Positions 4,521 through 31,492 are shown, numbered from the stretch's first letter. The stretch: 32,000 nt of DNA from Okeania sp. (GCF_035285525.1 NZ_JAYKGW010000235.1:28317-60316), one strand, 5' to 3'. The notes: generated by a model from the letters alone, not told the origin. Numbers and translations are program-made.

Positions 4521-4682
4521 AGTCTTTAATAGGTAATAAAGTAAGGTGAACTGAAATTGAAATTGAAAAAAATTATAATATTTTCTTTATGATTGTAATG
4601 CTAAAGAGTACAAATTTAGAATTTAGAATTTAGAATTGGATAGTATCAGGAAGGCAGAACGGAAGGAATAAGGTAAGAAGGT

Positions 4683-4788
4683 TAGGATTTACACGGGAGG
4701 AACCCGGTTTCTAGGAGAAATCGTTGTTTTGAGCAGTAATAATCTACCCTCGTACCGGGTTTCTGGGTTCATCTGCGTAAGTCCTGAA
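4683..4788. repeat. Dispersed repeat family 'aggacttac ... gaacccggtttct ... gcgtaagtcct'
   Basis: taggatttacacgggaggaacccggtttctaggag...accgggtttctgggttcatctgcgtaagtcctg is near-identical in architecture to 18098-18175, with partial copies at 17120-17165 and 17223-17250. Confidence 0.55.
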
Positions 4789-4900
4789 GGTATAAACTTT
4801 TTCATCGACTAATTATCCGGATACAAGTGTATATGTTCATAATTTTATCTACAGTTCAATCTCCCCATCTCCCCATCTCCCACAACTATATAACGAGTAT

Positions 4901-7054
4901 TTAACCGGATTTTATATTATATATAACTTCACTACTATCAAGAACTGCTTCCTGTAATGCTCCTACTGAAAACTTGGCTCCTGTTAAATTAGCTCCCCTC
5001 AAATCAGCGTTAGTAAAATTTCCTCTCTCACAGTTGGCATTTTGAAGATCGGCAGCTCTGAGATTAGCATCTTGAAAATTTAAGTCTTGCAAACTTAAAC
5101 CAATTAGCACACAGTTAGAAAAATCATTATTTCCTGCATCTAATCTTTCCCTAATTTGCTGTCGCCATAGCTTGTTAAACATTCCTATCTCAGATAACTT
5201 AGAAATCAAATAAATTAACTTATTATTAGACTCTATACCGCGAAGAGTACCCTGAACATCATACCAGTTGAGCCAAGGTAATAATCCCTCTGGAGACTGA
5301 AGGGAAAAATTGACCTTATTTTCGTGATAAGCATCAGCAGTTTGAGCATAACCACGACCTACACAATTAATAAAATTTTTCTCTACCTTTGCCAGATCTT
5401 CACTTTGAGTAGATAGGGTGCGCCAAATTCTTTCTTGCACACTAAAACCAAAATGCCCATGAGAATATACTATCCACAGTAAATCAATGGTTCGGAAATC
5501 CAGTAAAGGTAATTTATAAACAAATTTTTCATTCAGACAACTGGAAAAATGACCATAAAACGAGGAAGCCGGAAACTCTTCCCGATGGATACTTTCCAGC
5601 ATTTTTTGATAATTCTGTAGTAAGCGAGTAAGTTGATTAAATATCTCAGACTGAATATTTTTGTTGATTGTCTTCAAAACCTCTTTGGCTTCCCGAATAC
5701 CTTCGTATATATCTATTCTAAAAGCAATTTCACACAATAAGCGGAAGGTTTCCCTATCCGCTTTTTGCCATTGAGATGCTGCTAGTAAATCTTGCAGTTT
5801 TTTGTAGTTAACTCCTAATGCTGAGTGCAACTCTATATCCGTAACCAATTTTTTCTTGGGATCAAAAATGACATCTCTAGGACGTTGCCAGACTTTTTCA
5901 ATGATTTCAGCGATCGCTTCCCCAAGTGTTTCTGATGAAATATTCTCTTCTCCCAACTTTTGCCACAACTTAGAAGATATGTAGTAAGGACGAGGCATTT
6001 GTTCATAAAGCCGTTTAGCATAACCCCCTGTCACCCCCACCGGAATTACCACTGCACCCATTTCTATTGCAGTTTCAGCTTCTTGTTTTGCACCTGGTCC
6101 CCCTTCTATAAGTACATAAACCGATGCCATGCGAGCTAAAATTTCTCGACGCTCAAATAAAGTTTTACCTCCATAAAGATTTAGACCATATTCCCAGGGT
6201 TGAAATCCTTCTGGTTGGATATGATACACTAAAGCTGGTTGATGTTGCTGATAGCATTCTTGCCAAAAACTACGGGAGACTGCTTCAGGTATACCTGTGA
6301 CTCCACCTGTTAAGAGAGCTAACTTTTGAAATGATGTAGCAAGTTTTCTACCAGTAGCATTGCATATTGCCTTGGTAGTTACACCCCAAAATGAGGTACT
6401 GCCAATGATTGCTACTCGATACTCAGATTGAATTTGAGTAAGTAACTGTCTAGCTATTTTGCTTTCATATTTTTGCCTAGAAGTGGGGGAAGTTATGGAA
6501 GTTGGCAGGTTTATTTTGTATTGTTCGTAATTATCCAGCTCGTGACAAACAAAAATTATTCTCCATGGTAAAGGGTGATTTTCCAAAAATGTCAGGGCTT
6601 CTGTGAGAGCTATTTTCGCAGCCCAATCTCTAGGAAAGCCACGCATTCCGGTGCTAATACAGGGAAACGCGAGACTATGAATTTGGTTTTGTGCTGCTAG
6701 TTGCAAACAGTTCCGATAACATCTGGCTAGCTGTTTGCTGGATATTTTACTATTGGTTTTATCCCAAACTGGGGCACAGGTATGAATGATGTATGAAGCT
6801 ATAAGTTTATAGCCTTTAGTAATTTTAGCTTCGCTAGTTTCCAGCCATTCTATTTGTCTTGTGGCTTTTATTATTGCTTCTCCTGCTGCTTGGTAAATTT
6901 GACTAGATAATCCATGACCACGAAGACTATTGTCAGTAGGATTCACGATCGCTTCTACCGATTGATAAATAATATTGCCTTGAGTAATGCTCAAGCGTTT
7001 ACCACATTGTAGATTTTTCCTAGAAGTCTGCGTACTTTTCCCTGGTTTATTCAT
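4901..7054 (-). CDS. Multidomain protein: Macro (ADP-ribose binding/processing) + LOG/SLOG-like Rossmannoid + GUN4-like + C-terminal pentapeptide repeats
   Basis: 717-aa ORF. The Macro-like part is about aa 20-185 (ITQGNI..VEAIVNPTDNSL.G.G....IYQAAG, AFPCISTGMRGFP). The LOG/SLOG-like part is about aa 205-350 (VAIIGS..., LLTGGVTGIPEAV, IEGGPGAKQEAETAIEMGAVVIPVGVTGG). The GUN4-like part is about aa 400-600 (GVNYKKLQDLLAASQWQKADRET, DLLW..SHGHFGFSVQERIW). Pentapeptide repeats are about aa 630-700 (ANLRAADLQNANCERGNFTNADLRGANLTGAKF). Confidence 0.75.
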   Translation of the reverse strand: MNKPGKSTQTSRKNLQCGKRLSITQGNIIYQSVEAIVNPTDNSLRGHGLSSQIYQAAGEAIIKATRQIEWLETSEAKITKGYKLIASYIIHTCAPVWDKTNSKISSKQLARCYRNCLQLAAQNQIHSLAFPCISTGMRGFPRDWAAKIALTEALTFLENHPLPWRIIFVCHELDNYEQYKINLPTSITSPTSRQKYESKIARQLLTQIQSEYRVAIIGSTSFWGVTTKAICNATGRKLATSFQKLALLTGGVTGIPEAVSRSFWQECYQQHQPALVYHIQPEGFQPWEYGLNLYGGKTLFERREILARMASVYVLIEGGPGAKQEAETAIEMGAVVIPVGVTGGYAKRLYEQMPRPYYISSKLWQKLGEENISSETLGEAIAEIIEKVWQRPRDVIFDPKKKLVTDIELHSALGVNYKKLQDLLAASQWQKADRETFRLLCEIAFRIDIYEGIREAKEVLKTINKNIQSEIFNQLTRLLQNYQKMLESIHREEFPASSFYGHFSSCLNEKFVYKLPLLDFRTIDLLWIVYSHGHFGFSVQERIWRTLSTQSEDLAKVEKNFINCVGRGYAQTADAYHENKVNFSLQSPEGLLPWLNWYDVQGTLRGIESNNKLIYLISKLSEIGMFNKLWRQQIRERLDAGNNDFSNCVLIGLSLQDLNFQDANLRAADLQNANCERGNFTNADLRGANLTGAKFSVGALQEAVLDSSEVIYNIKSG

Positions 7055-7316
7055 ACTTGATTTTATATATAAAAATAATTAATTTTCATTATTATACAGA
7101 TTTTCCTTGATATTTGCTGAGTATAAATTTATGTGTTTATTAAAAGCAGAAATTACTAATAGATATTTCCAGGGAACAGGGAACAGGTATGGAGGGAATA
7201 GGTATGGAGGGAATAGTTGGAAAAGTGTTTTCTAGTCTAAAAGCCATCATCAGTCGATGTCCTAATTGCCTTGTCGGTTGCTATACTTTTTGATTACCCG
7301 TAACCTATTTAGGGTT

Positions 7317-7554
7317 TGCTGATTTATCGGGAACCGTAAAAGTCTTTTTTAAGGGTAGGGATGTTGTATGCAACGTCTTTACGGAAGCGCTTGAGTAGGG
7401 AGTAGTTAAGAGTTAGGAGAAACGCGGAGTTGTACAAAAGGTAGTCATTCTTAGTTTCTCCTTATTTTTTCTGTCATAATTACCCTAAAATCCTTACTTT
7501 TTCCTCTCCATAAACCGAAAATTTGGTACTTTTGCGGTTCCCGATAAATCAGTA
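7317..7554. mobile_element. Palindromic element split by insertion of a second repeat (nested MITEs)
   Basis: tgctgatttatcgggaaccgtaaaagt (7317-7343) matches the reverse complement of acttttgcggttcccgataaatcagta (7528-7554) at 25/27 positions. The 184 bp between them carries sequences of the family seen at 88-525 (aagggtaggg..., gagtagggagtagttaagagttaggagaaac). Confidence 0.55.
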
Positions 7555-7713
7555 CCTAAAATTATTCAAACCTTTATTGAATAGTGCTTTCCTCTTTAAT
7601 CAGCTAACCCTATTTAGGATTGCTATATTAGGAATTATTCACTAACACAAGAAACCGAATTTATGCAGGAAATTCTGGGGAATAAACCAGGTTTCTGCAT
7701 AGGTAATTTCTAA

Positions 7714-8826: not shown

Positions 8827-9410
8827 TTCTATTTAATTTGATATGTTTTTCAGACAATAATCAGAATTATATAGCAATTTTGATACTGATAAGTTACAAA
8901 ATTTCTAAATATTTAGCAGTTAGGTATTTATTGTAGTGTAAGCATTAAGCATTTAGCTTTTGAACTTAATAAGTGTTTGTGCAAAATTAATTACACATCT
9001 ATACAAACTGAATTATTTTCCTTCTCAAGAGTACAGAGAATTAGAATAGGTAAATAATTTTGCTTAGGTACTTAACTTACTAAAGTTAGTTAATGGCCTG
9101 TTTATTTCCTACGGAATGCTAGGCAAATATAAGTTTGACTTCTTTTTCAAGGCTAATTTATATTTGGTGTGCTATTAAGTTAGTAATTCATAGCTAATAA
9201 CTGAATGCTTATAGCTTACTTTAAAGCTATTTTAAGGTAATAAACTACATAGCTCAATAGACTATTAAGGTTAATTAATGGACTTTTAACGATACTTTTA
9301 ATTCTTGGAAATTTCTGAATTGTTTTTCCCTCCTTTAAAAGTAATAAAGCTATTAGGGCAGCTCCTTCGCACCAGGCTAGCTAATGGCTGACTGCTCAAT
9401 GCTGAATGCT

Positions 9411-9960
9411 TACCTAAATAGACATCTGCAAAAATCAAAAATATAATCCATTATTATATATAAATCATCAATTAGTCCCCCTGTTCCCTGTTTCCTAAAA
9501 AAGCTTTATTAGTTGAGGTCAATTGTATCTTACTATCAAAACCGACTTTAAGGGTTATATTCTTCATTTAAAGCCATTTTTAGGTTTAGATAAGGTCAGC
9601 TCTCAGTAATAATATCTAAATCTTAAGAAATAGCCGTAAACAGACTTTTCCAAAAATTAAAAATATAATCAATTCTTATCCATAAATAATCAATTACTCC
9701 CCCATTCCCTGTTCCCTAAAAAAAGCTTTATTATTCGAGGTCAATTGCATCTTACTATCAAAGCCGATTTTAAGGGTTATATTCTTCATTTAAAGCCATT
9801 TTTAGGTTTAGATAGGGTCAGCTCTCAGTAATAATATCTAAGCCTTAAGAAATAGCCGTAAATAGAAATCTGCAAAAATCAAAAATATAATTAATTCTTA
9901 TCTATAAATCATCAATTACTGCCCCTGTTCCCTGTTTCCTGTTCTCTGTTCCCTCTTTTC
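9411..9960. repeat. Tandem repeat, period ~222 bp, about 2.4 copies
   Basis: ctgcaaaaatcaaaaatataat... starts at 9425 and 9870, with a diverged copy at about 9647. Each unit contains ctgttccctgtttcct, gaggtcaattg.atcttactatcaaa.ccga.tttaagggttatattcttcatttaaagccatttttaggtttagata.ggtcagctctcagtaataatatctaa. Confidence 0.85.
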
Positions 9961-10107
9961 GGAAGATGTCTAATGAATATAGACCCTAGAGAATTTCATA
10001 TTTTTCAGTTAAAAATTTCATATTTTTGGAGCAAATATTCTGATAGTTTACCAGTTAAATAGTAGTCATTTTATGTAATTTATAAGATTTTTGAATTAAA
10101 ATTTTTT

Positions 10108-11640
10108 ATGAATGGACAAAAATCACATAATACTTCACCTACTATAATGGTGGTAGATGACCAAGAATATATGCGTTATTTGCTGTCTAGAGCTTTAAAA
10201 TTAGAAGGGTATGAGATAATAGAAGCAAGTAATGGCAAAGAATGCCTGGAAAAATGTAGCACTCAAATACCAGATTTAATTTTACTAGACCTAATGATGC
10301 CAGAAATGGATGGTTTTAATTGCTGTGTTAAATTGCAAAAACTTTTTAACGAGAGTTTATCAAATAATTTTTGTCTTGGGAACCTAGATAGCAACCCTTT
10401 AATTTATCAAACTCCATTATTAATAATCACTTCTCTTGAAGATAAAGAATCTGTTGATTTAGCTTTTAAAGTTGGGGCAATGGATTATATTACTAAACCA
10501 ATTAAATTGACAGTTTTACTGAAGCGAGTTCATCGAATTTTGCAAATTAATGAAGTGGTAAAAGAATTAAGGCAGCAAACAGAAAATGCCAAATTTATGA
10601 GTTTTATTCAAGAACGGATACGTCAATCATTACAACTTGATGAAATTCTAAAAACTACAGTAGATGAAGTCAGAAGTTTTCTGAAAACTGACAGAGTATT
10701 TATATATAAATTCAAGCCTGATGGAACAGGAGAAGTAGTTATGGAATCTGTGAGTTTTTATCAAACATCTGTTCTAGAAAGCATGAATAAATTTAGTAAT
10801 AATGGACATAATAAATTGGCAGATAAAGAAGATATACCTATTGCAGATCTAATTCCATATCATGTTAAATTTCTGACTCAGTTTCAAGTAAAGGCTAACT
10901 TAGTAGTACCAATATCAAAGATTAATACAGAACAAAAATCTGCAGAAGATTTTGATTATACTCAAGAACAATTGTGGGGATTATTAATTGTTCATCACTG
11001 TTCAGAACGAAGAAAATGGCAGCCTTTAGAAATTGAATTTCTGGAACGTTTAGCTGGACAGTTAGCGATCGCTATTCAACAATCAGAAATATATCAAAAA
11101 TTAGTAATTGCTAATCAAAAGTTAGTTGAATTTGCCAACTATGATAGTTTAACTAAGGTTGCTAACCGTCGTGTATTTGAAGAATATATGGATAAAGAAT
11201 GGCAACGTATGGCAAGGGAAAAAACACCAATGACTTTGATTTTATGTGATGTTGACTATTTCAAAGGTTACAATGATACTTATGGTCATTTAGCAGGAGA
11301 TAGATGTCTGCAAACTATTGCTAATGTAATTAAAACAGAAGTTAAGCGACCGGCAGATTTAGTTGCACGTTACGGTGGGGAAGAATTTGTAATTGTATTA
11401 CCTCTAACAACTGCTCAAGGTGGATTTGATTTAGCAGAATTAATTCGTCAGCGACTTTTAGATTTAAAATTAGTTAATTCTGGTTCCAAAATATCAGAAT
11501 TTGTTACTCTTAGTTTAGGTGTAGCAAGCACTATTCCTTTATCAGAAGTTTCCTGGGAAAAATTAGTAAAAATAGCAGATAAAGCCCTTTATAAAGCAAA
11601 GGAAGAAGGACGTGATCGCGTAATTATTAAAAATTTTTAA
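10108..11640 (+). CDS. Response regulator receiver (REC) - GAF - GGDEF diguanylate cyclase
   Basis: 510-aa ORF. REC motifs are VVDDQ and DLILLDLMMPEMDG ... ITKP. The central region is GAF-like (DRVFIYKF...WGLLIVHHC). The GGDEF domain has RPADLVARYGGEEF, i.e. an RxxD I-site five residues before GGEEF. Confidence 0.9.
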   Translation: MNGQKSHNTSPTIMVVDDQEYMRYLLSRALKLEGYEIIEASNGKECLEKCSTQIPDLILLDLMMPEMDGFNCCVKLQKLFNESLSNNFCLGNLDSNPLIYQTPLLIITSLEDKESVDLAFKVGAMDYITKPIKLTVLLKRVHRILQINEVVKELRQQTENAKFMSFIQERIRQSLQLDEILKTTVDEVRSFLKTDRVFIYKFKPDGTGEVVMESVSFYQTSVLESMNKFSNNGHNKLADKEDIPIADLIPYHVKFLTQFQVKANLVVPISKINTEQKSAEDFDYTQEQLWGLLIVHHCSERRKWQPLEIEFLERLAGQLAIAIQQSEIYQKLVIANQKLVEFANYDSLTKVANRRVFEEYMDKEWQRMAREKTPMTLILCDVDYFKGYNDTYGHLAGDRCLQTIANVIKTEVKRPADLVARYGGEEFVIVLPLTTAQGGFDLAELIRQRLLDLKLVNSGSKISEFVTLSLGVASTIPLSEVSWEKLVKIADKALYKAKEEGRDRVIIKNF

Positions 11641-11645
11641 ATTTT

Positions 11646-11866
11646 GGTATTTAAGCTTTAGTTTGGTAACACAACCTTCCCAGTTGTTACAGCTACCGAA
11701 GGCTGTGTGACAAATAATAATTTTAGTATTTAAGCTTTAGTTTGGTAAGACAACCTTCCAGGTTGTTACAGCTACCAAAGGCTGTGTTACAGGGGATAGA
11801 GATTAATCTTCAAAAGTTTGGTAATACAACTTTCCAAGTTGTTACAGCTACCGAAAGCTGTGTGAC
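11646..11866. repeat. Three tandem copies (~78-79 bp spacing) of a hairpin-forming repeat tttggtaa.acaaccttcc.ggttgttacagctacc.aaggctgtgt.ac
   Basis: Copies lie at about 11646-11711, 11725-11790 and 11815-11866, immediately after the GGDEF gene stop. Copy 2 contains the perfect hairpin acaacc-ttcca-ggttgt. The same family occurs in inverse orientation at 31600-32000. Confidence 0.75.
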
Positions 11867-11886
11867 AATTGAACATTCCTTCTTTT

Positions 11887-17060: not shown

Positions 17061-17137
17061 TTAAAGAACCTCACAAGTTTATGAATGAGTTTAGCATTAT
17101 TGATTTTAGCATTAAACAGGACTTACCCAGGGTGAAG

Positions 17138-17305
17138 CCAGAAACCCGGTTTTTTTTCGTAAGTCCTAATTCAACTTAATATTTCAGGTAAAAGTCTTGG
17201 GTTAAAGAAATAAATTCTCAACCCAGAAACCGGGTTTCTTTTCGTAAACCCTAATTCAACTTAATATTTCAGGTAAAAATCTTGGATTAAAGAAATAAAT
17301 TCGGG
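17138..17305. repeat. 85-bp tandem duplication that includes the last ~14 codons of trmN6 plus 3' flank
   Basis: ttaatatttcaggtaaaagtcttgggttaaagaaataaattc starts at 17176. ttaatatttcaggtaaaaatcttggattaaagaaataaattc starts at 17261 and is the real gene end. Both are preceded by ccagaaacc.ggttt...cgtaa..cctaattcaac. Confidence 0.8.
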
Positions 17306-18197: not shown

Positions 18198-19688
18198 ATG
18201 GTAACAGAAAAAATTCTCAAACAAGACACCCAAAAGACAATAGAAACAGAAACATTTCAGTGGACAAAACAATGGTATCCAGTAGCAGTTGTAGACCACA
18301 CTGACTCATCTCGACCATATCCATTTCAGCTACTGGGGAAAAATTTAGTTCTGTGGCAGAATAATAGTGGAAAATGGTCTTGCTTTGAAGATGTTTGTCC
18401 TCACCGACTCGTTCCTTTTTCCGAAGGTAGAGTAGAATCAGATGGAACTCTGATGTGTGCATACCACGCTTGGCGCTTTAACTCCGAGGGCAAGTATGTC
18501 AGCATTCCTCAGTCTAAAAATAAAGAAACCGAAGCCAAAAATTGTGCTGACAGTAAATCTTGTGCTATTGTCTATCCCACCCAGGAACGTCAAGGTTTAC
18601 TTTGGGTATGGGCAGAATCTGGAGAACAAGCTCAGGTAGAAAGTCAGTTACGGGAACCCAGGGTTATTCCTGAACTAGAAAACCCATCAGACAAAGTTGT
18701 GAAACTATATTGGAGTATGCGCGAACTTCCCTACGGTTGGGATTTATTTATGGAAAATGTTTCAGATCCAGCTCATGTTCCAGTTTCCCACCACGGAATA
18801 ATGGGTAGCAGATATGATGAGGATAAATATTATGACATGATTCCAGTGAGGAAATTTTCTACCCAGGAAGGTTTCTCTTTTGAAATCAGACCAATAAAAG
18901 TACCTGGTATGAAACAAGCTATCCATGATTTTCAACCACCTTGTCACATGAGAATTTTCACTGAACTTGAGGGTGGTGGAAAATCCATTTTGGCTTTGTA
19001 TGCTAGTCCTTCTCGGCCTGGTTGGTGTCGAACTATTGGATGTCAGGTGTTTGTAAAAGATGACCAAGGAAAACGAGCGAAAGGTTTAGGATTCTTTGGT
19101 TTGCCAATGCCTGAATGATTGAGTCATGTATTAGGTCCTATATTTTTACACCAAGATTTGGTCTTTCTTCATTATCAGGAGAAAATCCTAGCAAGGCAAC
19201 AGCAAGGAAAATATCTAGATATGATTTATACGCCTAATCCTCAAGATAAAATGGTGATTACATTCCGCAGATGGTTGGAGAAATCTGCTGGAGGTGGGAT
19301 ACCTTGGAGTCAAGAATGTAATCCCGAAATACCACTACCAGAATATGACAAACGTAAGCTTTTTGATGTTTGGGAAACTCACACGAAACATTGTCTGACT
19401 TGTCAGAATGCACTGAAAAATATTAATCGCTTCAAAATTTTGACCTACGTTTTGGCAGCGTTATGTTTGTGTTTGGGGATAATTATTGATGCACGGACGA
19501 TCGCTATTCAAGTAGCTACAGCAGCAGTAACTGAAACGGCAACTTCTGTTTCTGGTTTGGCATTGCCTCCACTAGGATTTTGGTTGGCGGTTGGAGGTGC
19601 AGCTTTATTTGCTTTCGGTGGATATAAGTTGCAACAGTTGACTAGATTGTTTTATGTTTATGAGTTTGAACACGCAGATAATGATTAA
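18198..19688 (+). pseudogene. Rieske [2Fe-2S] / pheophorbide-a-oxygenase (PaO/Tic55) family oxygenase interrupted by a single in-frame TGA (19116-19118)
   Basis: ORFs 18198..19118 and 19119..19688 are in the same frame and are separated only by TGA. Part 1 has the Rieske motifs CPHR...CAYHAWRF and a non-haem iron region (NVSDPAHVPVSHH). Part 2 has the PaO-domain segment LHYQE...ITFRRWL, the CxxC motif (HCLTCQ) and C-terminal TM helices. The sum of 496 codons is typical for the family. Confidence 0.8.
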
Positions 19689-21519: not shown

Positions 21520-22977
21520 ATGAAAAAAATTAATCGCCGAAATTTTTTAATCCTAAGTTATAGTAGTATCATTGCTACTTTAATGTCTCAATGTCGGATA
21601 GCCAATACTCAAGAAAATCAACAAAATTTTTCATCATATTCTCAAATTAATCAGAGCCAAGATGGAATTTTAGAACTTGATTTAACAACTAATTTGAATC
21701 GAATAAATCTGGGAAATAAACCAGCTTATCTACTAAATTATAACGGACAAATTCCCGGACCAAGACTAGAAGCAAAACCAGGAGATACTATTAAAATTAA
21801 TTTCACTAACAATCTCCCCCAACCCACAAATATTCATTACCACGGACTGCATATTCCCATTACCGGAAACGCCGATAACGTCTTTCTGAATATTCCATCA
21901 GGCGATCGCTTTACATATCAATTCCAAATTCCGGAAAATCATCCTGCTGGAATGTTCTGGTATCATCCACATCTACATGGTTTTGTAGCAGAACAATTAT
22001 TTGGTGGGTTGGCGGGATTATTTATTGTTCGGGGAGAGTTAGATGAAATTCCAGAAGTGAAAGCTGCTGACGAACAATTTTTAGTATTGCAAGATTTTGC
22101 CTTAGACAAAAAAGGAAATATGCTCCCATCCCAGGAACTCTCAATAATGACGGGAAGGGAAGGAAATTTGATTACTGCTAACGGTCAACTTACCCCTAAT
22201 TTTGCCATTTCTGCTCAAGGTTTATTACGACTACGAATCCTGAATGCTTCCACTTCCAGATTTTATCGGTTGTCTCTAGAAGAACATCCATTTTATCTCA
22301 TCGCTACTGACGGAGGTGCATTAGCTGAACCCTTAGAAATGTCAGAACTGTTACTGACTCCTGGAGAACGTGCAGATGTATTAGTCCGAGCTAACCGAGA
22401 ACCAGGAAAATATCGTTTGCTAAATTTGCCTTACGAACGAGTGGGTATGGGTATGATGGGAGGAGGGATGATGGGGAGAAATATTCCTGAAAATCAACCG
22501 CAAGTATTAGCAACAGTCAGTTATGACAAACAGGTTGCTGCTGTACCACTGCCAACAAAACTAATCCCAGTTCCATCATTGCCAGAACCTGAAAAAGTGC
22601 GTCGTTTTCAAATGAATCATGGCATGATACCCGGTCAAGGAATGGCGTTTTTGTTTAATGGTGAGTCATATCAACCAGAAAGAATTGATACTCAAGTTCA
22701 GCTCAATACTCTTGAAGACTGGGAATTAATAAATACAGGCATTATGGATCATCCCTTTCATGTTCATGGCAATGCTTTTCAAGTTTTGAGTCGGAATGGT
22801 AAACCAGAAACTTATCGCGCTTGGAAAGATGTGGTTTTGGTGAGAGCGGGGGAAACAGTTTTAATGCGGATGCCTTTTCGAGATTTTGCTGGAAAGACTG
22901 TTTATCATTGTCATATTCTTGACCACGAAGATTTGGGAATGATGGGAAATTTGGAGATTATAGGTAAACCGCTGTAG
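21520..22977 (+). CDS. Multicopper oxidase (CueO/CopA-like) with Tat signal peptide
   Basis: 485-aa ORF. It has the twin-arginine motif NRRNFL. The copper ligand motifs are HYHGLH, WYHPHLHG, HPFHVHG and HCHILDHEDLGMMG. It also has the Met-rich loop GMGMMGGGMMG. Confidence 0.92.
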   Translation: MKKINRRNFLILSYSSIIATLMSQCRIANTQENQQNFSSYSQINQSQDGILELDLTTNLNRINLGNKPAYLLNYNGQIPGPRLEAKPGDTIKINFTNNLPQPTNIHYHGLHIPITGNADNVFLNIPSGDRFTYQFQIPENHPAGMFWYHPHLHGFVAEQLFGGLAGLFIVRGELDEIPEVKAADEQFLVLQDFALDKKGNMLPSQELSIMTGREGNLITANGQLTPNFAISAQGLLRLRILNASTSRFYRLSLEEHPFYLIATDGGALAEPLEMSELLLTPGERADVLVRANREPGKYRLLNLPYERVGMGMMGGGMMGRNIPENQPQVLATVSYDKQVAAVPLPTKLIPVPSLPEPEKVRRFQMNHGMIPGQGMAFLFNGESYQPERIDTQVQLNTLEDWELINTGIMDHPFHVHGNAFQVLSRNGKPETYRAWKDVVLVRAGETVLMRMPFRDFAGKTVYHCHILDHEDLGMMGNLEIIGKPL

Positions 22978-23001
22978 GAACGTTGCATGCAACGTTCCTA
23001 C
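22974..23001. repeat. 28-nt perfect palindrome gtaggaacgttgcatgcaacgttcctac (member of the gtagggacgtt...aacgtccctac family), possible terminator hairpin
   Basis: It is a perfect inverted repeat that includes the multicopper oxidase stop codon TAG (22975-22977). Related hairpins lie at 12765-12802, about 7352-7382 and 26005-26088. No T-run follows it. Confidence 0.8.
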
Positions 23002-23119
23002 AAAACAAGGCCGAACAAAGCCATTTTTTTGCCTAAATTCAATATTGTTGGGTTGCGCTTTCGCTTAACCCAACCTACAATATAAATATTGATATCAAAG
23101 ATTATTTGAGGTAATCGTT

Positions 23120-23677
23120 ATGAAAAAGTTTTTTTCTAATAGGATGCAGTCTCTAATTATTGGTGTAGGGGTTGCTGGAGTTTTAGGAGCAGCATATTTT
23201 TCTTTCATCGTTTTGCCACAAAACTCCGCCGTTAGTACCGCAACCCAGAATGTTGCAAATTCTGGTTCACCTACAACAAATTTAGCACCAGAAGCACTGA
23301 ATATTACTGTTTACCGCACTCCTACTTGTGGATGCTGTAAGGGTTGGGTGGAACATATTCAGAAAAATGGTTTTCAAGTAACCGATATTGTCAAACCTGA
23401 GTCAGAAATTCAAACTATTCGCCAGAAATATAATTTGCCTTCAGATTTGACATCTTGCCACACCAGTGAAATTGGGGGTTATCTTGTCGAAGGTCATATT
23501 CCAGTGGCAGATGTGAAACGTTTAATTGCCCAGAAACCAGATGTTGCTGGAATTAGTGTTCCCGGAATGCCTATTGGTACTCCGGGTATGGAAATGGGCG
23601 ATCGCCAACAATCTTTTGATGTATTTGCCTTTGAAAAAGATGGTCAGACTAGAGTTTTTAATTCTTATAAATTCTAG
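23120..23677 (+). CDS. DUF411 (CopG-like) metal-binding protein
   Basis: 185-aa ORF with a signal/TM helix, then TCGCCKGW, SCHT, GYLVEGHIP and GISVPGMPIGTPGME. This is the characteristic DUF411 motif set found in copper-resistance loci. Confidence 0.85.
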   Translation: MKKFFSNRMQSLIIGVGVAGVLGAAYFSFIVLPQNSAVSTATQNVANSGSPTTNLAPEALNITVYRTPTCGCCKGWVEHIQKNGFQVTDIVKPESEIQTIRQKYNLPSDLTSCHTSEIGGYLVEGHIPVADVKRLIAQKPDVAGISVPGMPIGTPGMEMGDRQQSFDVFAFEKDGQTRVFNSYKF

Positions 23678-23985
23678 AATATTGACTTAATCAAGGAATA
23701 AAGGTATAGTGCTTTATAAAAAGACTTATGCACTAAATTAGGGATGACGCAAAGGCACTATATAATATAGCGCATAGGTGCGTTAGCGAAGCGTAACGCA
23801 CCCTACTAATAGCGTTCATGGCTTTAGTCCTATTTATATTATCGGCAATGTATTCTCCCTGTTCCCACCTTCTGTGTTCCCTGTTCCCTGCGCGTAGCGC
23901 TATAATAAACAGAAAATTCTGATGGTTCAATACTCTGGTATAGTAATACATATCTAACACAATTAGAAAATTTTTTTAATCAACA

Positions 23986-24633
23986 ATGATGAAATTATTT
24001 ACTGTTGGTCATTCCAATCATTCTATCGAATTTTTTTTAAGTCTTTTACAAAAACATCAAATTACAACTGTGGCAGATGTTCGTTCTTTTCCTTATAGTA
24101 AGTATTCACCTCATTTTAATCAAAAAAATATTCAGCAATCTCTACAGGAAATCAATATTTCATACATTTTTTTAGGCAAAGAATTAGGTGCTAGAACTAA
24201 TGATTTAAGTTGCTATGTTAATGGCAAAGCTTTATATGAATTAATTGCTCAGACAGAAGATTTTAAAAAAGGTTTAGAAAGAGTTTATCAAAGTTGGGAA
24301 AATCATAATAATATTGCTTTAATGTGTTCTGAACAAGACCCCATTACTTGTCATCGTGCTATTTTAGTGAGCCGAAATTTAAAAAATCAAGGTTTAGATA
24401 TTTATCATATTCTTAAAAGTGGTGAATTAGAAAATCACTCCGATTTAGAAAAAAGACTATTAGAGATTAATAATCTTGTAGAAAAGCCTCAGTCATTTTT
24501 ACAATTAAGTCTTTTTGATACTGAAAGCTTCAGTCAAAATGTTACGCAATCTACTCAAGATTCTGAATATACGAAACTTGAAAAAGCTTACAAAATTCAA
24601 GGGGATAAAATTGCTTATGTAAACAAAAAATAA
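23986..24633 (+). CDS. DUF488 domain-containing protein (with ~70-aa C-terminal extension)
   Basis: 215-aa ORF. LFTVGHSNHSIEFFLSLLQKHQITTVADVRSFPYS and CSEQDPITCHRAILV match the DUF488 (YeaO-like) pattern. Confidence 0.8.
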   Translation: MMKLFTVGHSNHSIEFFLSLLQKHQITTVADVRSFPYSKYSPHFNQKNIQQSLQEINISYIFLGKELGARTNDLSCYVNGKALYELIAQTEDFKKGLERVYQSWENHNNIALMCSEQDPITCHRAILVSRNLKNQGLDIYHILKSGELENHSDLEKRLLEINNLVEKPQSFLQLSLFDTESFSQNVTQSTQDSEYTKLEKAYKIQGDKIAYVNKK

Positions 24634-24790
24634 TGTAAGCAATCAGCCTTTAGCTCTTAATAAACCTTGACTAAGAATTAAGGTATGATTAATGATTATT
24701 TCATTCATTTTTATTGCTGTTTGCGTAGCATTCATCCGGAATAGTTGACAGCTAATGGGTTAATTTTTACTTAGTTAGGAATTAAATAAA

Positions 24791-25237
24791 ATGGAAAAAA
24801 CTATTGAACTTTTTACAATTGGATTTACGAAAAAAACGGCTCAAGACTTTTTTGAAAACCTCACAAAATCAAAAGTAAAATGCCTTATTGATGCAAGATT
24901 TAATAATGTTTCTCAACTTGCCGGATTTGCCAAAAGAAAAGATTTAGAATATTTTCTCAAAGTTATTTGCGATATTGAATATATTCATATTCTAGATTTA
25001 GCACCTACTAAAGAACTTTTAGATGATTATAAAAAAAAGAAAATTACTTGGGATACTTATGAACAAAATTTTAATAATCTGATGAAAGAAAGAGAAATTG
25101 AAAAAAAGGTTTCACCTCAACTTTTAGACCGAGGTTGTTTACTTTGTAGTGAAGCTAAACCACATTATTGTCATCGTCGTTTAGTCGCTGAATATCTTAA
25201 TCAACAATGGGGAAATATTAAAGTATGTCATCTCTAA
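24791..25237 (+). CDS. DUF488 domain-containing protein (short paralog)
   Basis: 148-aa ORF. LFTIGFTKKTAQDFFENLTKSKVKCLIDARFNN and CSEAKPHYCHRRLVAEYL show the same DUF488 motifs, but it is highly diverged from the upstream copy. Confidence 0.8.
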   Translation: MEKTIELFTIGFTKKTAQDFFENLTKSKVKCLIDARFNNVSQLAGFAKRKDLEYFLKVICDIEYIHILDLAPTKELLDDYKKKKITWDTYEQNFNNLMKEREIEKKVSPQLLDRGCLLCSEAKPHYCHRRLVAEYLNQQWGNIKVCHL

Positions 25238-25899
25238 AAAAAATAATTTGTTTGGCTAATTCCTACAAACAAAATGAGCGTTGTATAGCAGGAATTGATT
25301 TAGATACAGGAAAATGGATTCGTCCAATATGCGATCGCCAATTTCCTGAAGATGGAAGAGTACCTTTAAGAATTAGACTTGTGGAACATGGAGAACCAAA
25401 ACCTCTTGATATTCTGGAAATTCCTCTTGATAATAAAGGAAATGATTTTGGTTTTGAAAGTGAAAACTTTTCAGTATTAAAAGGTAAATGGAAATGTTTA
25501 GGTAAAGCTAAAGTTGAGGATATATTTCCATACTGTAATAATTCAGAATATATCCTACATAATAATCGTAAATATATTTATCCTTCTTATCTAAAAAGAG
25601 TTCCCTGGCATCTACGTCGAACAATTGAAATTGTTAAAGTTAAAAAGCATAATTTTTCTTTTGTTCAAGATAAAAGAGGGAAATTTCGAGGTAGTATTAA
25701 AAGTAATCATGGTTATTGGCTTTTAAATAATGCAAAAATTACCGATCCAGAGTTTATGAAAAACTTAGAAAATGGATATTCTCCAACTGCAAATAATCTT
25801 TTGGTTACTGTTAGTTTGAGTCTGCCTTATGCTCCTGAAGATTGGGAAGGTGAAGCTCCTTGTTGGAAGTTAATAGCAAATATTATTGAATTTGATTAG
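25225..25899 (+). CDS. Uncharacterised Cys-rich protein, translationally coupled to the second DUF488 gene
   Basis: 224-aa ORF whose ATG lies 13 nt inside the end of the preceding gene. It has the N-terminal motif CLANSYKQNERCIAGIDLDTGKWIRPIC and the C-terminal motif APCWKLIANIIEF. I cannot assign a characterised family. Confidence 0.6.
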   Translation: MSSLKKIICLANSYKQNERCIAGIDLDTGKWIRPICDRQFPEDGRVPLRIRLVEHGEPKPLDILEIPLDNKGNDFGFESENFSVLKGKWKCLGKAKVEDIFPYCNNSEYILHNNRKYIYPSYLKRVPWHLRRTIEIVKVKKHNFSFVQDKRGKFRGSIKSNHGYWLLNNAKITDPEFMKNLENGYSPTANNLLVTVSLSLPYAPEDWEGEAPCWKLIANIIEFD

Positions 25900-26120
25900 T
25901 TGAAAAATTAAGGAATGAAAATTATATCATTTCCGGATAATTAGCGAGCCAAAAAACTTGCTCCTTTTTATACCTTAAAACTTCTTCTTCTCTTCTAATT
26001 TTGTAGGGACGTTCCACTGGCAAAAATGCTTTTTCCTAAGGTTATGCTCTGCATTTCATGTCCGCTCTTAGGGGAAAACGTCCCTACAACCTAAAACAAC
26101 CTGCTTTTTAATGCTTACAT

Positions 26121-26456
26121 TTAATTGTTAGCATAACGAGTAAATTGTCGTTTAAAAGAAGAATGAAAACCAATGACAATATCAGTAGGAGGTACACCCA
26201 TCTCTTCTAACCTTTCAGCAACAGACTCTTCTGTACCATTATATTGAATCCAAATTTTACCATCAATAATATCAAGGTGCATTACAGCACCAAATATTCG
26301 TTTATCTCCTCGCCAACCGATATAAGCTAATTGATAATGGTCCCGTTCTGTATCAAATATTAGTTCATCTTTGACTGTATCATTAGTATTGGCTATTTCC
26401 GCATGGGAAGTCAAAATTTCCCGAACAAGTTGTCGATATTTTTCTAATTTATCCAT
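26121..26456 (-). CDS. xisI: XisI (fdxN element excision controlling factor-like) protein
   Basis: 111-aa ORF. MDKLEKYRQLVREILTSHAE...DHYQLAYIGW...MHLDIIDGKIWIQYNGTE...GVP..DIV is the typical XisI family pattern. Confidence 0.85.
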   Translation of the reverse strand: MDKLEKYRQLVREILTSHAEIANTNDTVKDELIFDTERDHYQLAYIGWRGDKRIFGAVMHLDIIDGKIWIQYNGTEESVAERLEEMGVPPTDIVIGFHSSFKRQFTRYANN

Positions 26457-26860
26457 TCAGAAATTACCTCTAATTTAGGATTATAAATAATTAGTTTGAC
26501 TTGATAACGTTTCAGAGAACGTTGGATAAAAGGAAGCTGAAAAAAATTTTGATAAGCTTCTACAGGAATAGCTAAATAAACAATTCTGTCTGCTTCTTGT
26601 TCTTCAAGTGCTTGACAATAATTAAGATATTGACCTAAAGCAGTATGAAATGAGCTAATATCTGAATCTGCAATAAAACTTTTAATTTCTACAGCAATTT
26701 TTTCAGAACCTTTTTCTGCTGCAATAGCATTTTCTGCTGCTAAATCAATATGTAATTTGACAGCTTCACTAATTCTAATTGTAAAAGGATCGTGAGTAAT
26801 ATTCCATCCATCTTTGATTAAAGAATTTTTAACCTGTTGATGAAAAATGTCTTTTGCCAT
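26444..26860 (-). CDS. xisH: XisH (fdxN element excision controlling factor-like, endonuclease-fold) protein
   Basis: 138-aa ORF. MAKDIFHQQVKNSLIKDGWNITHDPFTI...DLAAE...IAVEIKSF is the typical XisH pattern. It overlaps xisI by 13 nt. Confidence 0.85.
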   Translation of the reverse strand: MAKDIFHQQVKNSLIKDGWNITHDPFTIRISEAVKLHIDLAAENAIAAEKGSEKIAVEIKSFIADSDISSFHTALGQYLNYCQALEEQEADRIVYLAIPVEAYQNFFQLPFIQRSLKRYQVKLIIYNPKLEVISEWIN

Positions 26861-26940
26861 TGTTGATAATTTTCATTATTGTTGGTAATTTTCTCTATAT
26901 AATTACTTACACAAAGACTCTATTGTACCTCCAATTTTTT

Positions 26941-27036
26941 CTAAGACATAGGGGGGAGATTAGTTATTATTGTTAATTTCTTGCTTAGGGTTAATTTACC
27001 AGCACCTGCATTGCCAAAAACTGCTACTTTTTTCAT
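26941..27036 (-). pseudogene. Stub of a P-loop NTPase/kinase gene
   Basis: AAGGAG lies upstream of the ATG at 27036. It encodes MKKVAVFGNAGAGKLTLSKKLTIITNLPPMS and then stops. This has a Walker A-like G.AGAGK start typical of small adenylate-kinase-like ATPases, but only 31 codons remain. Confidence 0.35.
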
Positions 27037-27058
27037 AAATTTTCTCCTTAAAGTTTAG

Positions 27059-27150
27059 ATATAAGAATCCTAAATAGGTTTTAATATTTTATCGCTGGCA
27101 GATGTTAAACTTTTCATTGCTAGAAACTAGCCTGATTTAGGATTCCTATA
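27059..27150. mobile_element. 92-bp MITE with TIRs tataagaatcctaaatagg / cctgatttaggattcctata
   Basis: The terminal inverted repeats are read directly. It shares an identical 29-mer, aatcctaaataggttttaatattttatcg (27066-27094), with 28366-28394. Confidence 0.65.
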
Positions 27151-27180
27151 TCATTAATGTAAAAATTATTCAAATGAAAC

Positions 27181-28255
27181 TTATAATTTTGACACTAAAT
27201 ATTTGACGTTTTCGACAGCTTCTTTATATCTATGTTTAGCCAATTTAATATTTTTTCCATCTGGCATTATAAAAGTTTCTCCTTGGTCAGGAAGTTGATG
27301 TAAAGGAATGCCAAGAGATGCAGAGACTTTTCCTGAAGAATGAAAATCTTTGACATTGGTAACATAAGCAGTTTGCCATCCACTGAGACAATCTAATGAA
27401 TTATTATTCTTAGTAAAATGTTCAGCAAATTTTTGATATTGTTCATAGCAAAAACTAATTAATTCTTCTCTAATTGAATTATAAGCATTAGCTACACCTT
27501 TATTGCTTGTGTAATTATTAAAAACAAATTGTTTTATTTTAGGTAATTTAAGCTCGAATCGCTGAACTTGTTTATTAAATGTGACAATATCACTCGCATA
27601 TTTTTTGAGAGATTCTGAAGGATATTGTTCATAAAGTAACATTAAAATCCCTTTAATTCCTTCTAATGAAGTAAAATCAGCCATCATAGGAATTATTAAA
27701 TAATCAGAAGAAAGTAACGCCATCTGTGTATAGATAGAAAAGCTAGGATTACAATCTATAAAAACAACTAACTCTTTGTATTTTTTCTTGTCAAATTCAC
27801 TTTGACATAATCTTTGTATTGCTGTCATGTAATCTTTCCATGCTGAAATTTTTGCTGGATTAATTACGGCATAATTAAGAGCTAAAGATAAAGATTCTAA
27901 AAAAGAATCACCAGCAATTAAATACAGATTTTTTTGGAATATGCTCATTATAGAGAGACGCTCGAACTTTATAAGTAGAATTTAATGATTTAAAGTCAGC
28001 ATTACCTTTCAAAATCCAATCAACAAAACCTACTACATTACGTCTTGAATAAGCTGATTGTAACTTTTGATTATTATCATATCCTTCCTTTCCGCCTCCA
28101 AGCAAAAATTGAGATATATTAGCTTGAGGACACATATCAATAACTAAAATTTGCTTCTCTGGATTTTGTTCAGCATACAATATTGAAGCATTGGAACATA
28201 AAGTTGTTTTACCAACACCACCTTTATTATTGTAAAAAGCATAAACTTTTGTCAT
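27181..28255 (-). pseudogene. ParA/MinD-superfamily ATPase disrupted by a +1 frameshift in an A7 run (T7 at 27939-27945 on the + strand)
   Basis: ORF 27908..28255 carries the deviant Walker A motif YNNKGGVGKTT. ORF 27181..27948 continues with NLYLIAGD...FIDCNPSFS...IIPMMADFTSLEG. Deleting one A from CCAAAAAAATCTG joins them as ..NEHIPKNLYLIAGD.. to give about 357 aa. Confidence 0.8.
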
Positions 28256-28354
28256 TTAACATTTCCTCTTAATCTAATAATATACATTTTTAGAAAAGGT
28301 TTTGAAACCCTGATAGCACTGTTCCAAAATTAATATTTTTGGAGAGGTCTAATA

Positions 28355-28455
28355 AATTAATATAGCATATAACAATCCTAAATAGGTTTTAATATTTTAT
28401 CGTAGGGATTTAGTCTCTAAACCAAAGCCCCAATGGAATTTGGAGAGAAAACCCC
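28355..28455. repeat. Copy of the aatcctaaatagg repeat family between the ParA-like pseudogene and the Cu-ATPase stop
   Basis: ataacaatcctaaataggttttaatattttatcgtagggatttagtctctaaacc...aaacccctacag. It is in the same orientation as, and exactly 1300 bp from, the copy at 27066. Confidence 0.6.
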
Positions 28456-28477
28456 TACAGTACAAGTATGAAAATTA

Positions 28478-30813: not shown

Positions 30814-31130
30814 AAAAATCTTGCTTTATCTACGTTTTAGGCTGTTGATCTGTCCTAACCTTTGCTTCGACTACTATGAAGAAATATATTTACCGAAGAA
30901 TTAATAATTAAATAATTAAATAATTGAATAATTCAGGTTTAAAGCCTCCCCTTTGAAGGGGAATAAAATAAATTTTTTCCTTTGATTCAATCTTCTTCCT
31001 TTTCGGGAGAGGTAATTATCAATTATCCATTATCAATTATCTATTATTGAAAGCGGGTTCCACCTTGTTGAGGTATACCCACGGGGGCAAGATGCCCGCT
31101 ACTTGTCAACATTTAATTATTAATTATCTG

Positions 31131-31420
31131 TATCTTTAGAGGGCAAATAGCATTTGCCCCTACAAAATATTGTAAATTTATTAGGGCTTACGGAAATTCT
31201 GAAGTAATACCCTATCTTTAGAGGGCAAATGCCATTTGCCCCTACAAAATATTGTAAATTTATTAGGGCTTACGGAAATTCTGAAGTAATACTCTATCTT
31301 TAGAGGGCAAATGCCATTTGCCCCTACAAAATATTGTAAATTTATTAGGGCTTACGGAAATTCTGAAGTAATACTCTATGTTTAGAGAGCAAATGGCATT
31401 TGCCCCTACAAAATATGGTA
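31131..31420. repeat. Tandem repeat, period 82 bp, ~3.5 copies, each with a 19-bp palindromic core gggcaaatgccatttgccc
   Basis: Unit starts (tatctttagagggc / tatgtttagagagc) lie at 31131, 31213, 31295 and 31377. Whole units are repeated, so there are no unique spacers. Only the central bases of the palindrome vary (tag/tgc/tgc/tgg). Confidence 0.9.
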
Positions 31421-31492
31421 GTTTTGCGTAAATCTTAATCGTAAACTCTCAAGTTAACTTTAGATTCAAGTATAACTAAAGTCAAAATAGTT

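Follow-up and report, generated by a model that had tools for sequence, protein, structure and literature searches.

The gene described here lies on the minus strand of a 32,000-nucleotide stretch of Okeania sp. DNA (GCF_035285525.1 NZ_JAYKGW010000235.1:28317-60316), referred to below as the window, and encodes a protein of 717 amino acids (aa) with a Macro, a SLOG and a GUN4-like domain and pentapeptide repeats. It was concluded that this protein is a member of an uncharacterised cyanobacterial response-regulator family that lost its receiver (REC) domain. At its core, the family has a LOG-like SLOG domain at the N-terminus and a CheY-like REC domain at the C-terminus, and the Macro, GUN4 and pentapeptide parts are optional. 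We proposed, with moderate confidence based on sequence and fold comparisons, that the product is a cytoplasmic signalling protein whose Macro-SLOG pair would handle an ADP-ribose (ADPR)-type nucleotide, an activity that would be coupled to REC in the relatives, the REC being lost here.

The Response-Regulator Family

In close relatives of the protein (66-78% identity, 845-978 aa), the pentapeptide repeats are followed by one or two CheY-like REC domains, which matched CheY structures with E values of ~1e-20. Relatives of ~537 aa, found in Rivularia sp. PCC 7116, Calothrix and marine metagenome-assembled genomes (MAGs), have the architecture Macro-SLOG-REC and possess neither GUN4 nor pentapeptide parts. 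A 401-aa protein of a Nostocaceae MAG (P0020), which occurs on 11 contigs, consists of Macro and SLOG only. Residues 1-395 were used as the query of an exhaustive HMMER search over 1.84 billion cluster representatives, and only three 50%-identity clusters (P0010, P0023 and P0015) contained a collinear Macro and SLOG match. Cyanobacterial proteins without a Macro domain, the SLOG of which was 44-52% identical, were found in the same search. The architectures SLOG-PPR-REC (P0162, P0171, P0186 and P0202) and SLOG-PPR-GUN4-REC (P0160) were recorded, and the REC domains of these proteins were of the same subtype (ILIVDDSITVRELL...TSRG...YFTKPY). The GUN4 and pentapeptide parts were found in either order among the family members.

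SLOG and REC were recognised as the conserved unit, because most relatives devoid of Macro, GUN4 or pentapeptide parts keep both. A MacroD-type Macro domain precedes the SLOG in one clade, and in Okeania, Dapis and Trichodesmium the region between SLOG and REC also holds a GUN4-like domain and a short pentapeptide beta-helix. The initial annotation had pointed to the four-domain combination and considered a standalone protein. Both views had to be revised: Macro, GUN4 and pentapeptide parts come and go around the SLOG and REC core, and the window protein is the shortened form of a response regulator, nearly all relatives having C-terminal REC domains. Literature searches gave no paper on either a SLOG...REC family of response regulators or the combination Macro-SLOG-GUN4-pentapeptide.

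Integrity of the Gene and Its Domains

The gene is one complete open reading frame (ORF) with an ATG start and zero internal stops, and the plus strand across the same positions contains stops throughout. The G+C content of the window was 34.6%. The translated protein showed 100% identity with the NCBI entry 'macro domain-containing protein [Okeania sp.]'. The four modules claimed in the initial annotation to lie in one ORF all scored above the curated Pfam-A cutoffs: Macro (PF01661) at residues 37-149 (E 9.6e-31, 106.6 bits, cutoff 22), the SLOG models LDcluster4 (PF18306) at 212-344 (33.9 bits, cutoff 26.3) and STALD (PF18185) at 316-387 (34.0 bits, cutoff 24), GUN4 (PF05419) in two stretches, the best at 509-597 (E 5.2e-25, 88.7 bits, cutoff 29.2), and Pentapeptide at 659-696 (E 1.3e-10, 41 bits, cutoff 20.2). 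NCBIfam was concordant, with matches to MacroD/YmdB-type, pentapeptide and TIGR00725 models, all of them under the equivalog cutoffs. The coordinates of all features are collected in Table 1.

It was also considered, as the initial annotation itself had foreseen, that the ORF might be an assembly chimera of separate genes. Apart from the sudden end of homology at nt 4925, nothing spoke for it. By blastn, the window was collinear from ~7126 to 4925, at 77-82% nucleotide identity, with orthologues in Okeania sp. SIO3I5, Dapis sp. BLCC M126 and Okeania sp. SIO1I7. When one genome per GTDB species was scanned, 13 loci matching residues 1 to ~710 were obtained in Okeania, Dapis, Trichodesmium and related MAGs, and the same architecture was present in at least 12 independent assemblies. 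Additionally, a Logan assembly of run SRR19514071 was 100% identical to window 4872-7200, across the junction and with the unusual 3' end included. Because of the collinear orthologues and the identical independent assembly, the chimera was ruled out as far as sequence data allow, and its probability is negligible.

Table 1. Features of the gene and its flanking DNA (window coordinates).
Feature	Position	Strand	Basis
Whole ORF, Macro - SLOG - GUN4-like - pentapeptide repeats, without REC	4901..7054	-	ORF translation, Pfam
Macro domain, residues ~18-185, MacroD/YmdB type	6500..7003	-	Pfam, family profile, Foldseek
Macro loop 1, N38-G58, NPTDNSLRGHGLSSQIYQAAG	6881..6943	-	Alignments
Macro loop 2, F130-P141, FPCISTGMRGFP	6632..6667	-	Alignments
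SLOG domain, residues ~195-392, LDcluster4, LOG-like	5879..6472	-	Pfam, AF2 model, Foldseek, PDB profile
GUN4-like domain, residues ~405-625	5180..5842	-	Pfam GUN4 E 5.2e-25; PDB 1z3x, 1y6i ~1e-10
Helical insertion of ~67 residues (445-511) in the GUN4 core; canonical ~14	5522..5722	-	Distance between the aligned pieces
13 pentapeptide units in tandem (N643-S707), ~3 beta-helix turns	4934..5128	-	Pfam; PDB pentapeptide proteins ~1e-13
Breakpoint and novel tail: last homologous codon V710 (4925-4927), then IYNIKSG (7 unrelated codons) and stop	4901..4927	-	blastn, alignment, independent assembly
Non-coding spacer rich in repeats, from the truncated gene to the GH57 branching-enzyme gene; 380 bp	4521..4900	.	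Repeats D13 (4682-4723), I4 (4613-4646)
Upstream non-coding region; MITE-like inverted repeats 7319-7343 / 7528-7552; 7395-7449 pairs with 438-492	7055..7713	.	Repeat search

Loss of the Receiver Domain

No REC domain (PF00072) was detected in the window protein by Pfam; the protein thus derives from a response-regulator family without being a response regulator itself. The blastn homology to two related loci (L011 and L001) stopped at window 4925/4924, in the linker after the last pentapeptide unit and 24 nt ahead of the stop codon, at a point where the relatives continue with linker and REC domain(s). The REC was lost by a rearrangement in this pentapeptide-REC linker at about nt 4925. No REC remnant was found downstream, where tblastn with the tail of a relative (P0002) matched only the unrelated REC of a GGDEF protein. 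A frameshift downstream of the stop was rejected as an explanation, the three-frame translation giving stops and repeats only.

The DNA on both sides of the gene differed from that of the relatives. The non-coding spacer downstream stands where the relatives have the REC coding part and an M48 peptidase gene. The next downstream gene was a TPR/M48 peptidase gene in 11 of the 11 Okeania-clade loci with downstream sequence; in the window it is the GH57 branching-enzyme gene, and no M48 peptidase gene was present in the window. Upstream, the closest subclade has a 379-aa TPR gene between the epimerase gene and the gene studied here, at the position of the upstream non-coding region of the window, which is without it. 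In Dapis and Okeania SIO3I5, a gene for a 1078-aa ETR1_N-PAS-GAF-HisKA-HATPase-REC hybrid kinase lies between the UDP-GlcNAc 2-epimerase and REC-GAF-GGDEF genes. At this site (window 8880-10030 versus L001 2036-5272), the window contains ~1.2 kb of non-coding DNA with 222-nt tandem repeats (9415-9940), and only ~45 nt around the 3' end of the kinase gene are left. In the SIO1I7 subclade the hybrid kinase does not neighbour the gene, and chlD stands upstream instead. That the nearby kinase and the REC of this protein are both missing from the same genome is suggestive, but amounts to one event only. The repeats and elements resembling miniature inverted-repeat transposable elements (MITEs) that flank both ends of the gene may have mediated the deletions. 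Throughout the window, the intergenic DNA is dense in short tandem and dispersed repeats and MITE-like hairpins, several of which are common to distant sites (11640-11867, 17135-17302, 31128-31425, 31586-31765 and 7319-7552).

The ratio of nonsynonymous to synonymous substitution rates (dN/dS, Nei-Gojobori) was 0.22-0.24 between the window gene and its relatives and 0.18-0.20 among the full-length relatives, with similar values for each domain. The ORF is still under purifying selection.

The SLOG Domain

From its sequence, the domain was assigned to the LDcluster4 family of SLOG domains, with LOG-like positions of predicted catalytic function retained. It shows the hallmarks of the SLOG superfamily, namely the Rossmannoid fold, a Gly-rich loop following strand 1 and the GxGxxxE element, and its motifs are IGSTS(219), LTGGVTGxxE257, H278, E301-R302-R303 and E317-GGPG-xxx-E325. 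A model of residues 190-395 built with AlphaFold2 (AF2) from 35 homologues had a predicted local distance difference test score (pLDDT) of 96.9. In the Foldseek search, the first match was the SLOG of B. cereus ThsA with 3' cyclic ADPR (3'cADPR; 7uxs, template modelling (TM) score ~0.7, 16% identity), followed by TM1055 (1rcu), YgdH/LOG enzymes, TRPM N-terminal domains, including that of the ADPR-binding TRPM2, and DprA. The order was reversed in the sequence profile search of the PDB, made with the trimmed SLOG alignment, in which 1rcu (1.5e-7) and the LOG-family phosphoribohydrolase 9us2 (2.8e-4) preceded ThsA (7e-3).

In the 9us2 alignment, E301-R302-R303 falls on the LOG motif E-R-K, and E317-G-G-P-G-x-x-x-E325 on P-G-G-x-G-T-x-x-E. 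Arg99 of the ERK motif and Glu122, the last Glu of PGGxGTxxE, have been proposed as the catalytic residues of the C. glutamicum enzyme CgLOG (PMC4979012). Since the motifs align, R302 and E325 are the counterparts of these two residues. Among 22 LDcluster4 sequences, distant standalone ones included, G218, G235, T249, G251, G254, H278, G290, G296 and E325 were invariant, and S219, E257, R261, R302, R303 and E317-GGPG were conserved in at least 90%.

More than 150 standalone LDcluster4 proteins of ~200 aa, with 34-49% identity, were found in cyanobacteria, Planctomycetes and other phyla. To our knowledge, no activity has been described for the Pfam family LDcluster4. The standalone genes showed no consistent genomic context in those examined. 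One of them adjoins genes for a KaiC-like ATPase and a histidine kinase, and another, in a cyanobacterial MAG (L012 4398-5618), lies 22 bp from a divergent NUDIX gene resembling nucleoside diphosphate (NDP)-sugar hydrolases, a possible ADP-ribose link that did not recur in the other contexts examined. LDcluster4 SLOG domains with ~30% identity were also observed in the eukaryotic transcriptome proteins P0178 (MMETSP) and P0208 (EukProt), one of which has N-terminal EF-hands.

The Macro Domain

The family profile of the Macro domain matched human MACROD2 with an E value of 9e-31, and the closest structures to the modelled domain in Foldseek were E. coli YmdB (TM score 0.88, 37% identity) and MacroD2 (38% identity). 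The catalytic loops were nevertheless remodelled. Loop 1, canonically NAAN..GGGGVDGxIHxAAG (NAANxxLxGGGGVDGxIHxAAG), reads N38-P-T-(N/D)-x-x-L-x-x-x-G-L-C50-S-x-I-H54-x-A-A-G in the family; it is shorter by one residue and has lost the glycine run, RGHG standing for GGGG in the window copy. The altered glycine loop LRGHGLSS reported in the initial annotation is indeed present (residues 44-51), and the alteration is family-wide rather than peculiar to the window copy. The position of the catalytic Asp is occupied by Cys in most relatives and by Ser in the window copy (Ser50) and in P0022, and a change of His54 to Tyr in the Macro pocket was seen only in the window copy. Asn38, the first Asn of the NAAN motif, is kept; the catalytic loop 1 of MacroD as a whole, with the Asn of NAAN, the GGG run and the Asp (MacroD2 ...NAANASLLGGGGVDGCIH...), is not. 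In the AF2 model, pLDDT was below 50 at residues 42-49 of this loop.

In loop 2, the canonical STG(I/V)(Y/F)G(F/Y)P is represented by (S/G)T(G/R)xR138GFP in the family and by STGMRGFP in the window copy. Arg138, which is invariant in 21 family members, stands in place of the aromatic residue over the distal ribose, and the aromatic loop 2 of the MacroD clade is lacking. Arg138 may make room for a further negatively charged group on the distal ribose. The macroH2A1.1 protein, which binds ADPR without catalysis, has a similar loop 2, GRNGFPK.

The nearest cyanobacterial Macro paralogues were Ser/Thr-kinase-GUN4-Macro and kinase-GUN4-TPR-Macro proteins (Microseira wollei NIES-4236 L052 8982-10982; L096 5607-8180). 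They share AIVNPT(D/N) with the family, yet keep the canonical SGGGGVD and STGxFGFP, and the remodelling of the catalytic loops is therefore specific to the family studied here. Their existence also indicates that Macro and GUN4 were combined repeatedly in filamentous cyanobacteria, in differing architectures. Fusions of GUN4 to signalling domains in these organisms, to which the initial annotation had referred, are documented (PMC7159879). Most likely, the Macro domain of the window protein keeps the ADP-ribose-binding fold and would either serve for binding or have an altered specificity.

The GUN4-Like Domain and the Pentapeptide Repeats

The GUN4 core matched in two pieces (E ~1e-10), residues 407-444 corresponding to SynGUN4 84-120 and residues 512-548 to 135-171. 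Helices were predicted at 434-462 and 469-492 by the AF2 model, which is poor in this region. Arg214 of SynGUN4 is essential to porphyrin binding, and the porphyrin-binding Arg214/Arg217 lie after the P208-L210 motif (PMC1084334). Counted from the LPWL motif, the position of Arg214 looks to be Tyr or Asp here; the HMMER alignments end before it, and its pLDDT was below 50. The domain may or may not bind tetrapyrroles, a reservation that the GUN4 authors had expressed for SynGUN4c. Cyanobacterial GUN4 domains are fused to kinases, caspases, trypsin and TIR, and an allosteric-sensor role was proposed for them by Kaur et al. (PMC7159879). The pentapeptide units are 13 consecutive pentads of the A(D/N)LXX type (PF00805).

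In five loci of the Okeania SIO1I7 subclade (L024-L027 and L029), chlD, the gene of Mg-chelatase D (AAA+ plus VWA), was observed ~1.3-3.5 kb upstream on the same strand. GUN4 is a cofactor of Mg-chelatase; the linkage of chlD to a GUN4-containing orthologue is absent in the window and in the other subclade and may be chance synteny.

Proposed Mechanism and Alternative Explanations

Sequence and fold evidence were consistent with the earlier proposal of a signalling protein that senses or processes ADP-ribose or related nucleotides, and we inferred that the Macro-SLOG pair most likely handles an ADP-ribose-type nucleotide. The ADP-ribose moiety would be bound by the remodelled Macro pocket, where Arg138 might leave room for an extra negative group on the distal ribose, and the adenine-nucleotide part would be bound by the SLOG, which would either cleave the adenine N-glycosidic bond or sense the ligand. 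Such cleavage by the SLOG is possible, because the counterparts of both LOG catalytic residues are kept. In the full-length relatives, the Macro-SLOG activity would be coupled to REC phosphorylation, and a metabolite input may be added by the GUN4-like domain; the REC-less window protein would act free of phosphorelay control, like the Macro-SLOG-only protein of the Nostocaceae MAG. This division of labour was modelled on the phage Macro-SLOG fusions of Iyer et al. (PMC9503650) and moved to cellular signalling. Supporting context for the two-component link was given by the sensor histidine kinase upstream in Rivularia-type loci and by the hybrid kinase nearby in the Dapis/Okeania SIO3I5 subclade. 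A more elaborate form of the proposal is a hitherto unrecognised His-Asp-regulated pathway of filamentous cyanobacteria for an ADP-ribose-derived small molecule, in which the LOG-like SLOG, assisted in one clade by the remodelled Macro, would make or destroy a nucleotide signal by adenine N-glycosidic cleavage and the GUN4-like domain would tie in tetrapyrrole or other metabolite status; it would extend NAD/ADPR second-messenger signalling beyond phage defence, and as a whole this pathway is speculative and improbable.

Several observations weigh against the proposed mechanism. Hydrolysis of the MacroD type by the Macro domain is doubtful, because its catalytic loop is degenerate. The SLOG is not a bona fide LOG, as it falls far below the curated thresholds of the LOG models (Lysine_decarbox, PF03641, 14.3 bits versus a cutoff of 27; TIGR00725, 29.7 versus 106.9). 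The ThsA sensor has the same Glu, and conserved SLOG residues cannot tell an enzyme from a sensor. P0015 and P0016 of a Mastigocoleus-like lineage keep the protein although their SLOG motifs are degenerate; hence, SLOG chemistry is not indispensable to every member. The full-length AF2 model had a predicted TM score of 0.41 and a poor GUN4 region, and its Foldseek search gave Macro matches only; the geometry between the domains is not readable from a model of this score. Furthermore, the window copy carries 10 unique in-frame changes at otherwise invariant columns (H54Y, L61I, D175N and others), compared with 0-5 in the relatives, and is ~5% more diverged from the outgroups; constraint may have relaxed somewhat once the REC was gone.

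The principal alternative is a non-catalytic sensor or scaffold, in which Macro and SLOG would only bind a nucleotide, as do the macroH2A-type Macro and the ThsA SLOG. Output would then pass through the protein contacts of the pentapeptide helix and, in relatives, the CheY-like REC, the nucleotide-binding domains being inputs and not outputs. The shortened Macro loop 1 without glycine run and Asp, the Arg in place of the loop 2 aromatic residue, the ThsA sensor domain with 3'cADPR as the best SLOG fold match, the C-terminal CheY-like REC and the retention of P0015 and P0016 despite degenerate SLOG motifs all fit such a protein. It was considered rather unlikely, since R302, E325, H278 and E257 are conserved even in distant standalone LDcluster4 proteins, a pattern that is more enzyme-like, and the profiles are nearer to LOG-like proteins than to ThsA. 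That the gene is a decaying remnant, functionless after the loss of REC and the nearby kinase and on its way to a pseudogene, was found to be very improbable. The truncated 3' end with its 7 unrelated codons, the disappearance of the neighbouring hybrid histidine kinase, TPR and M48 peptidase genes and the excess of unique changes and divergence described above would agree with decay, but 717 codons have remained free of frameshift or stop, dN/dS stayed near that of the full-length relatives in every domain comparison, the SLOG motifs are all intact, and a REC-less Macro-SLOG protein (P0020) occurs naturally.

A conflict-system component had been suggested in the initial annotation, together with a check of homologues for adjacent TIR, SIR2 or ART genes. 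Such an anti-phage protein would either sense ADPR signals made by TIR, in the manner of Thoeris, or degrade them. Thoeris sensors include both Macro and SLOG (PMC11204291), GUN4 and pentapeptide domains take part in conflict systems of multicellular cyanobacteria (PMC7159879), and the top fold match of the SLOG is that of ThsA. PADLOC gave weak ThsA/STALD matches (6.5e-8), as well as a PD-T4-6 match due to the GUN4 part. However, the polypeptide has no effector domain (SIR2, transmembrane, nuclease or protease), and the family members are response regulators. The gene lies among housekeeping genes in the window (ArgJ, GH57 branching enzyme and UDP-GlcNAc 2-epimerase), with DUF29, REC-GAF-GGDEF and MobA as further neighbours, and the stable synteny in Okeania, Dapis and Trichodesmium fits vertical inheritance. 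No TIR gene was found near the window gene or in the Pfam-annotated neighbourhoods of 7 homologues, and in 23 related loci TIR, SIR2, ART or ThsB was no conserved neighbour, the non-conserved neighbours of genome-contig loci not having been individually scanned. As no TIR, SIR2 or ART neighbour is conserved in these loci, a role in defence is improbable. We retained the proposed coupling of a nucleotide-handling Macro-SLOG pair to a REC as the preferred explanation.

Genomic Neighbourhood

The conserved neighbours in the 23 related loci were lineage-specific syntenic genes only. In Rivularia-type loci, a sensor histidine kinase (HAMP kinase), an ArsR/Clp_N protein and a 90-aa protein are encoded upstream. 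An ADP-ribosylglycohydrolase gene was noticed 6 kb away in one locus (L009), and it is not conserved. The promoter and terminator scan of the DNA gave counts at chance level, and no tRNA or Rfam matches were obtained in the window.

Other genes of the window were recorded as well. A Rieske/pheophorbide a oxygenase (PaO)-like gene is present as two abutting ORFs (18198-19118 and 19119-19688, plus strand) with the PaO domain split between them; this may reflect an in-frame stop, a pseudogene or a sequencing error. Behind two adjoining DUF488 genes (23986-24633 and 24791-25237) comes a DuOB (dual OB) gene (25225-25899) that overlaps the second of them, all within 23986-25899 on the plus strand. 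A copper-handling cluster extends over 21520-30754 and comprises a multicopper oxidase (21520-22977), DUF411 (23120-23677) and an HMA-domain P-type ATPase (28478-30754, minus strand).

Significance

What is known of bacterial Macro and SLOG domains comes mostly from Thoeris sensors in phage defence, from the counter-defence of phages and from housekeeping de-ADP-ribosylation. In the present case, Macro and SLOG form the non-receiver part of a vertically inherited cyanobacterial response-regulator family. None of the four domain families is new; Macro and SLOG were already seen paired in phages, and fusions of GUN4 are familiar from cyanobacteria. If the module does bind or process an ADP-ribose-type nucleotide under phosphorelay control, this would place NAD-derived signalling in ordinary cyanobacterial physiology and give a first functional handle on the LDcluster4 proteins of ~200 aa, which are widespread. 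Since the window copy lost its REC naturally, it is a possible comparison for the contribution of the receiver. At present, the evidence is bioinformatic and amounts to a well-defined hypothesis and a clean description of the family, in which the window copy appears as a truncated derivative.

Comparison with Known Systems

No description of an N-terminal Macro-SLOG module was found for any response regulator in the literature searched. In CheY-like/PatA-type regulators the REC is C-terminal, and the full-length relatives likewise end in one or two CheY-like REC domains, unlike the window protein. From the MacroD types (human MacroD1/MacroD2, E. coli YmdB and Oceanobacillus OiMacroD), with which the Macro domain shares the fold, 35-38% identity, the first Asn of NAAN and most of loop 2 (FPCISTG..GFP), it differs by the loop 1 that is one residue shorter, the loss of GGGG, the Asp changed to Cys/Ser, the invariant Arg in loop 2 and its place in a multidomain response-regulator family.

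The SLOG shares the Rossmannoid fold, the GGxxG loop and the motif pairs ERR~ERK and EGGPGxxxE~PGGxGTxxE with the LOG/TIGR00725 enzymes, i.e., the cytokinin riboside 5'-monophosphate phosphoribohydrolases, PpnN/YgdH and TM1055. In contrast to them, it scores below the LOG model thresholds, has Ala for the phosphate-binding Thr, belongs to LDcluster4 and is fused to Macro, GUN4 and pentapeptide parts. The Thoeris ThsA SLOG (STALD) is the best structural match and aligns in the C-terminal half (GxxxE...VIPVGxTGG), with Pfam STALD above its cutoff, although identity is 16-18% and the window protein has no SIR2/transmembrane effector and no ThsB/TIR neighbour, being chromosomal, syntenic and of a REC-linked family. 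The core motifs of GUN4 (ADRET..LCEI; IDxLWxxxSxGxFGFSVQ; GxLPW) are present, but the core is split by the helical insertion, the N-terminal domain of true GUN4 is gone, and a role in chlorophyll synthesis is not implied.

The closest precedent for the pairing of Macro and SLOG in one polypeptide is provided by the phage Macro-SLOG/NADAR-SLOG fusions, of which the Macro-SLOG proteins were predicted to attack two different bonds in the processing of ADPR derivatives (Iyer, Burroughs and Aravind 2022, PMC9503650). Those proteins are viral, contain mostly YpsA-like SLOG domains and were proposed to act in counter-defence, whereas the protein described here is cellular, carries an LDcluster4/LOG-like SLOG and belongs to a two-component family with GUN4 and pentapeptide parts.

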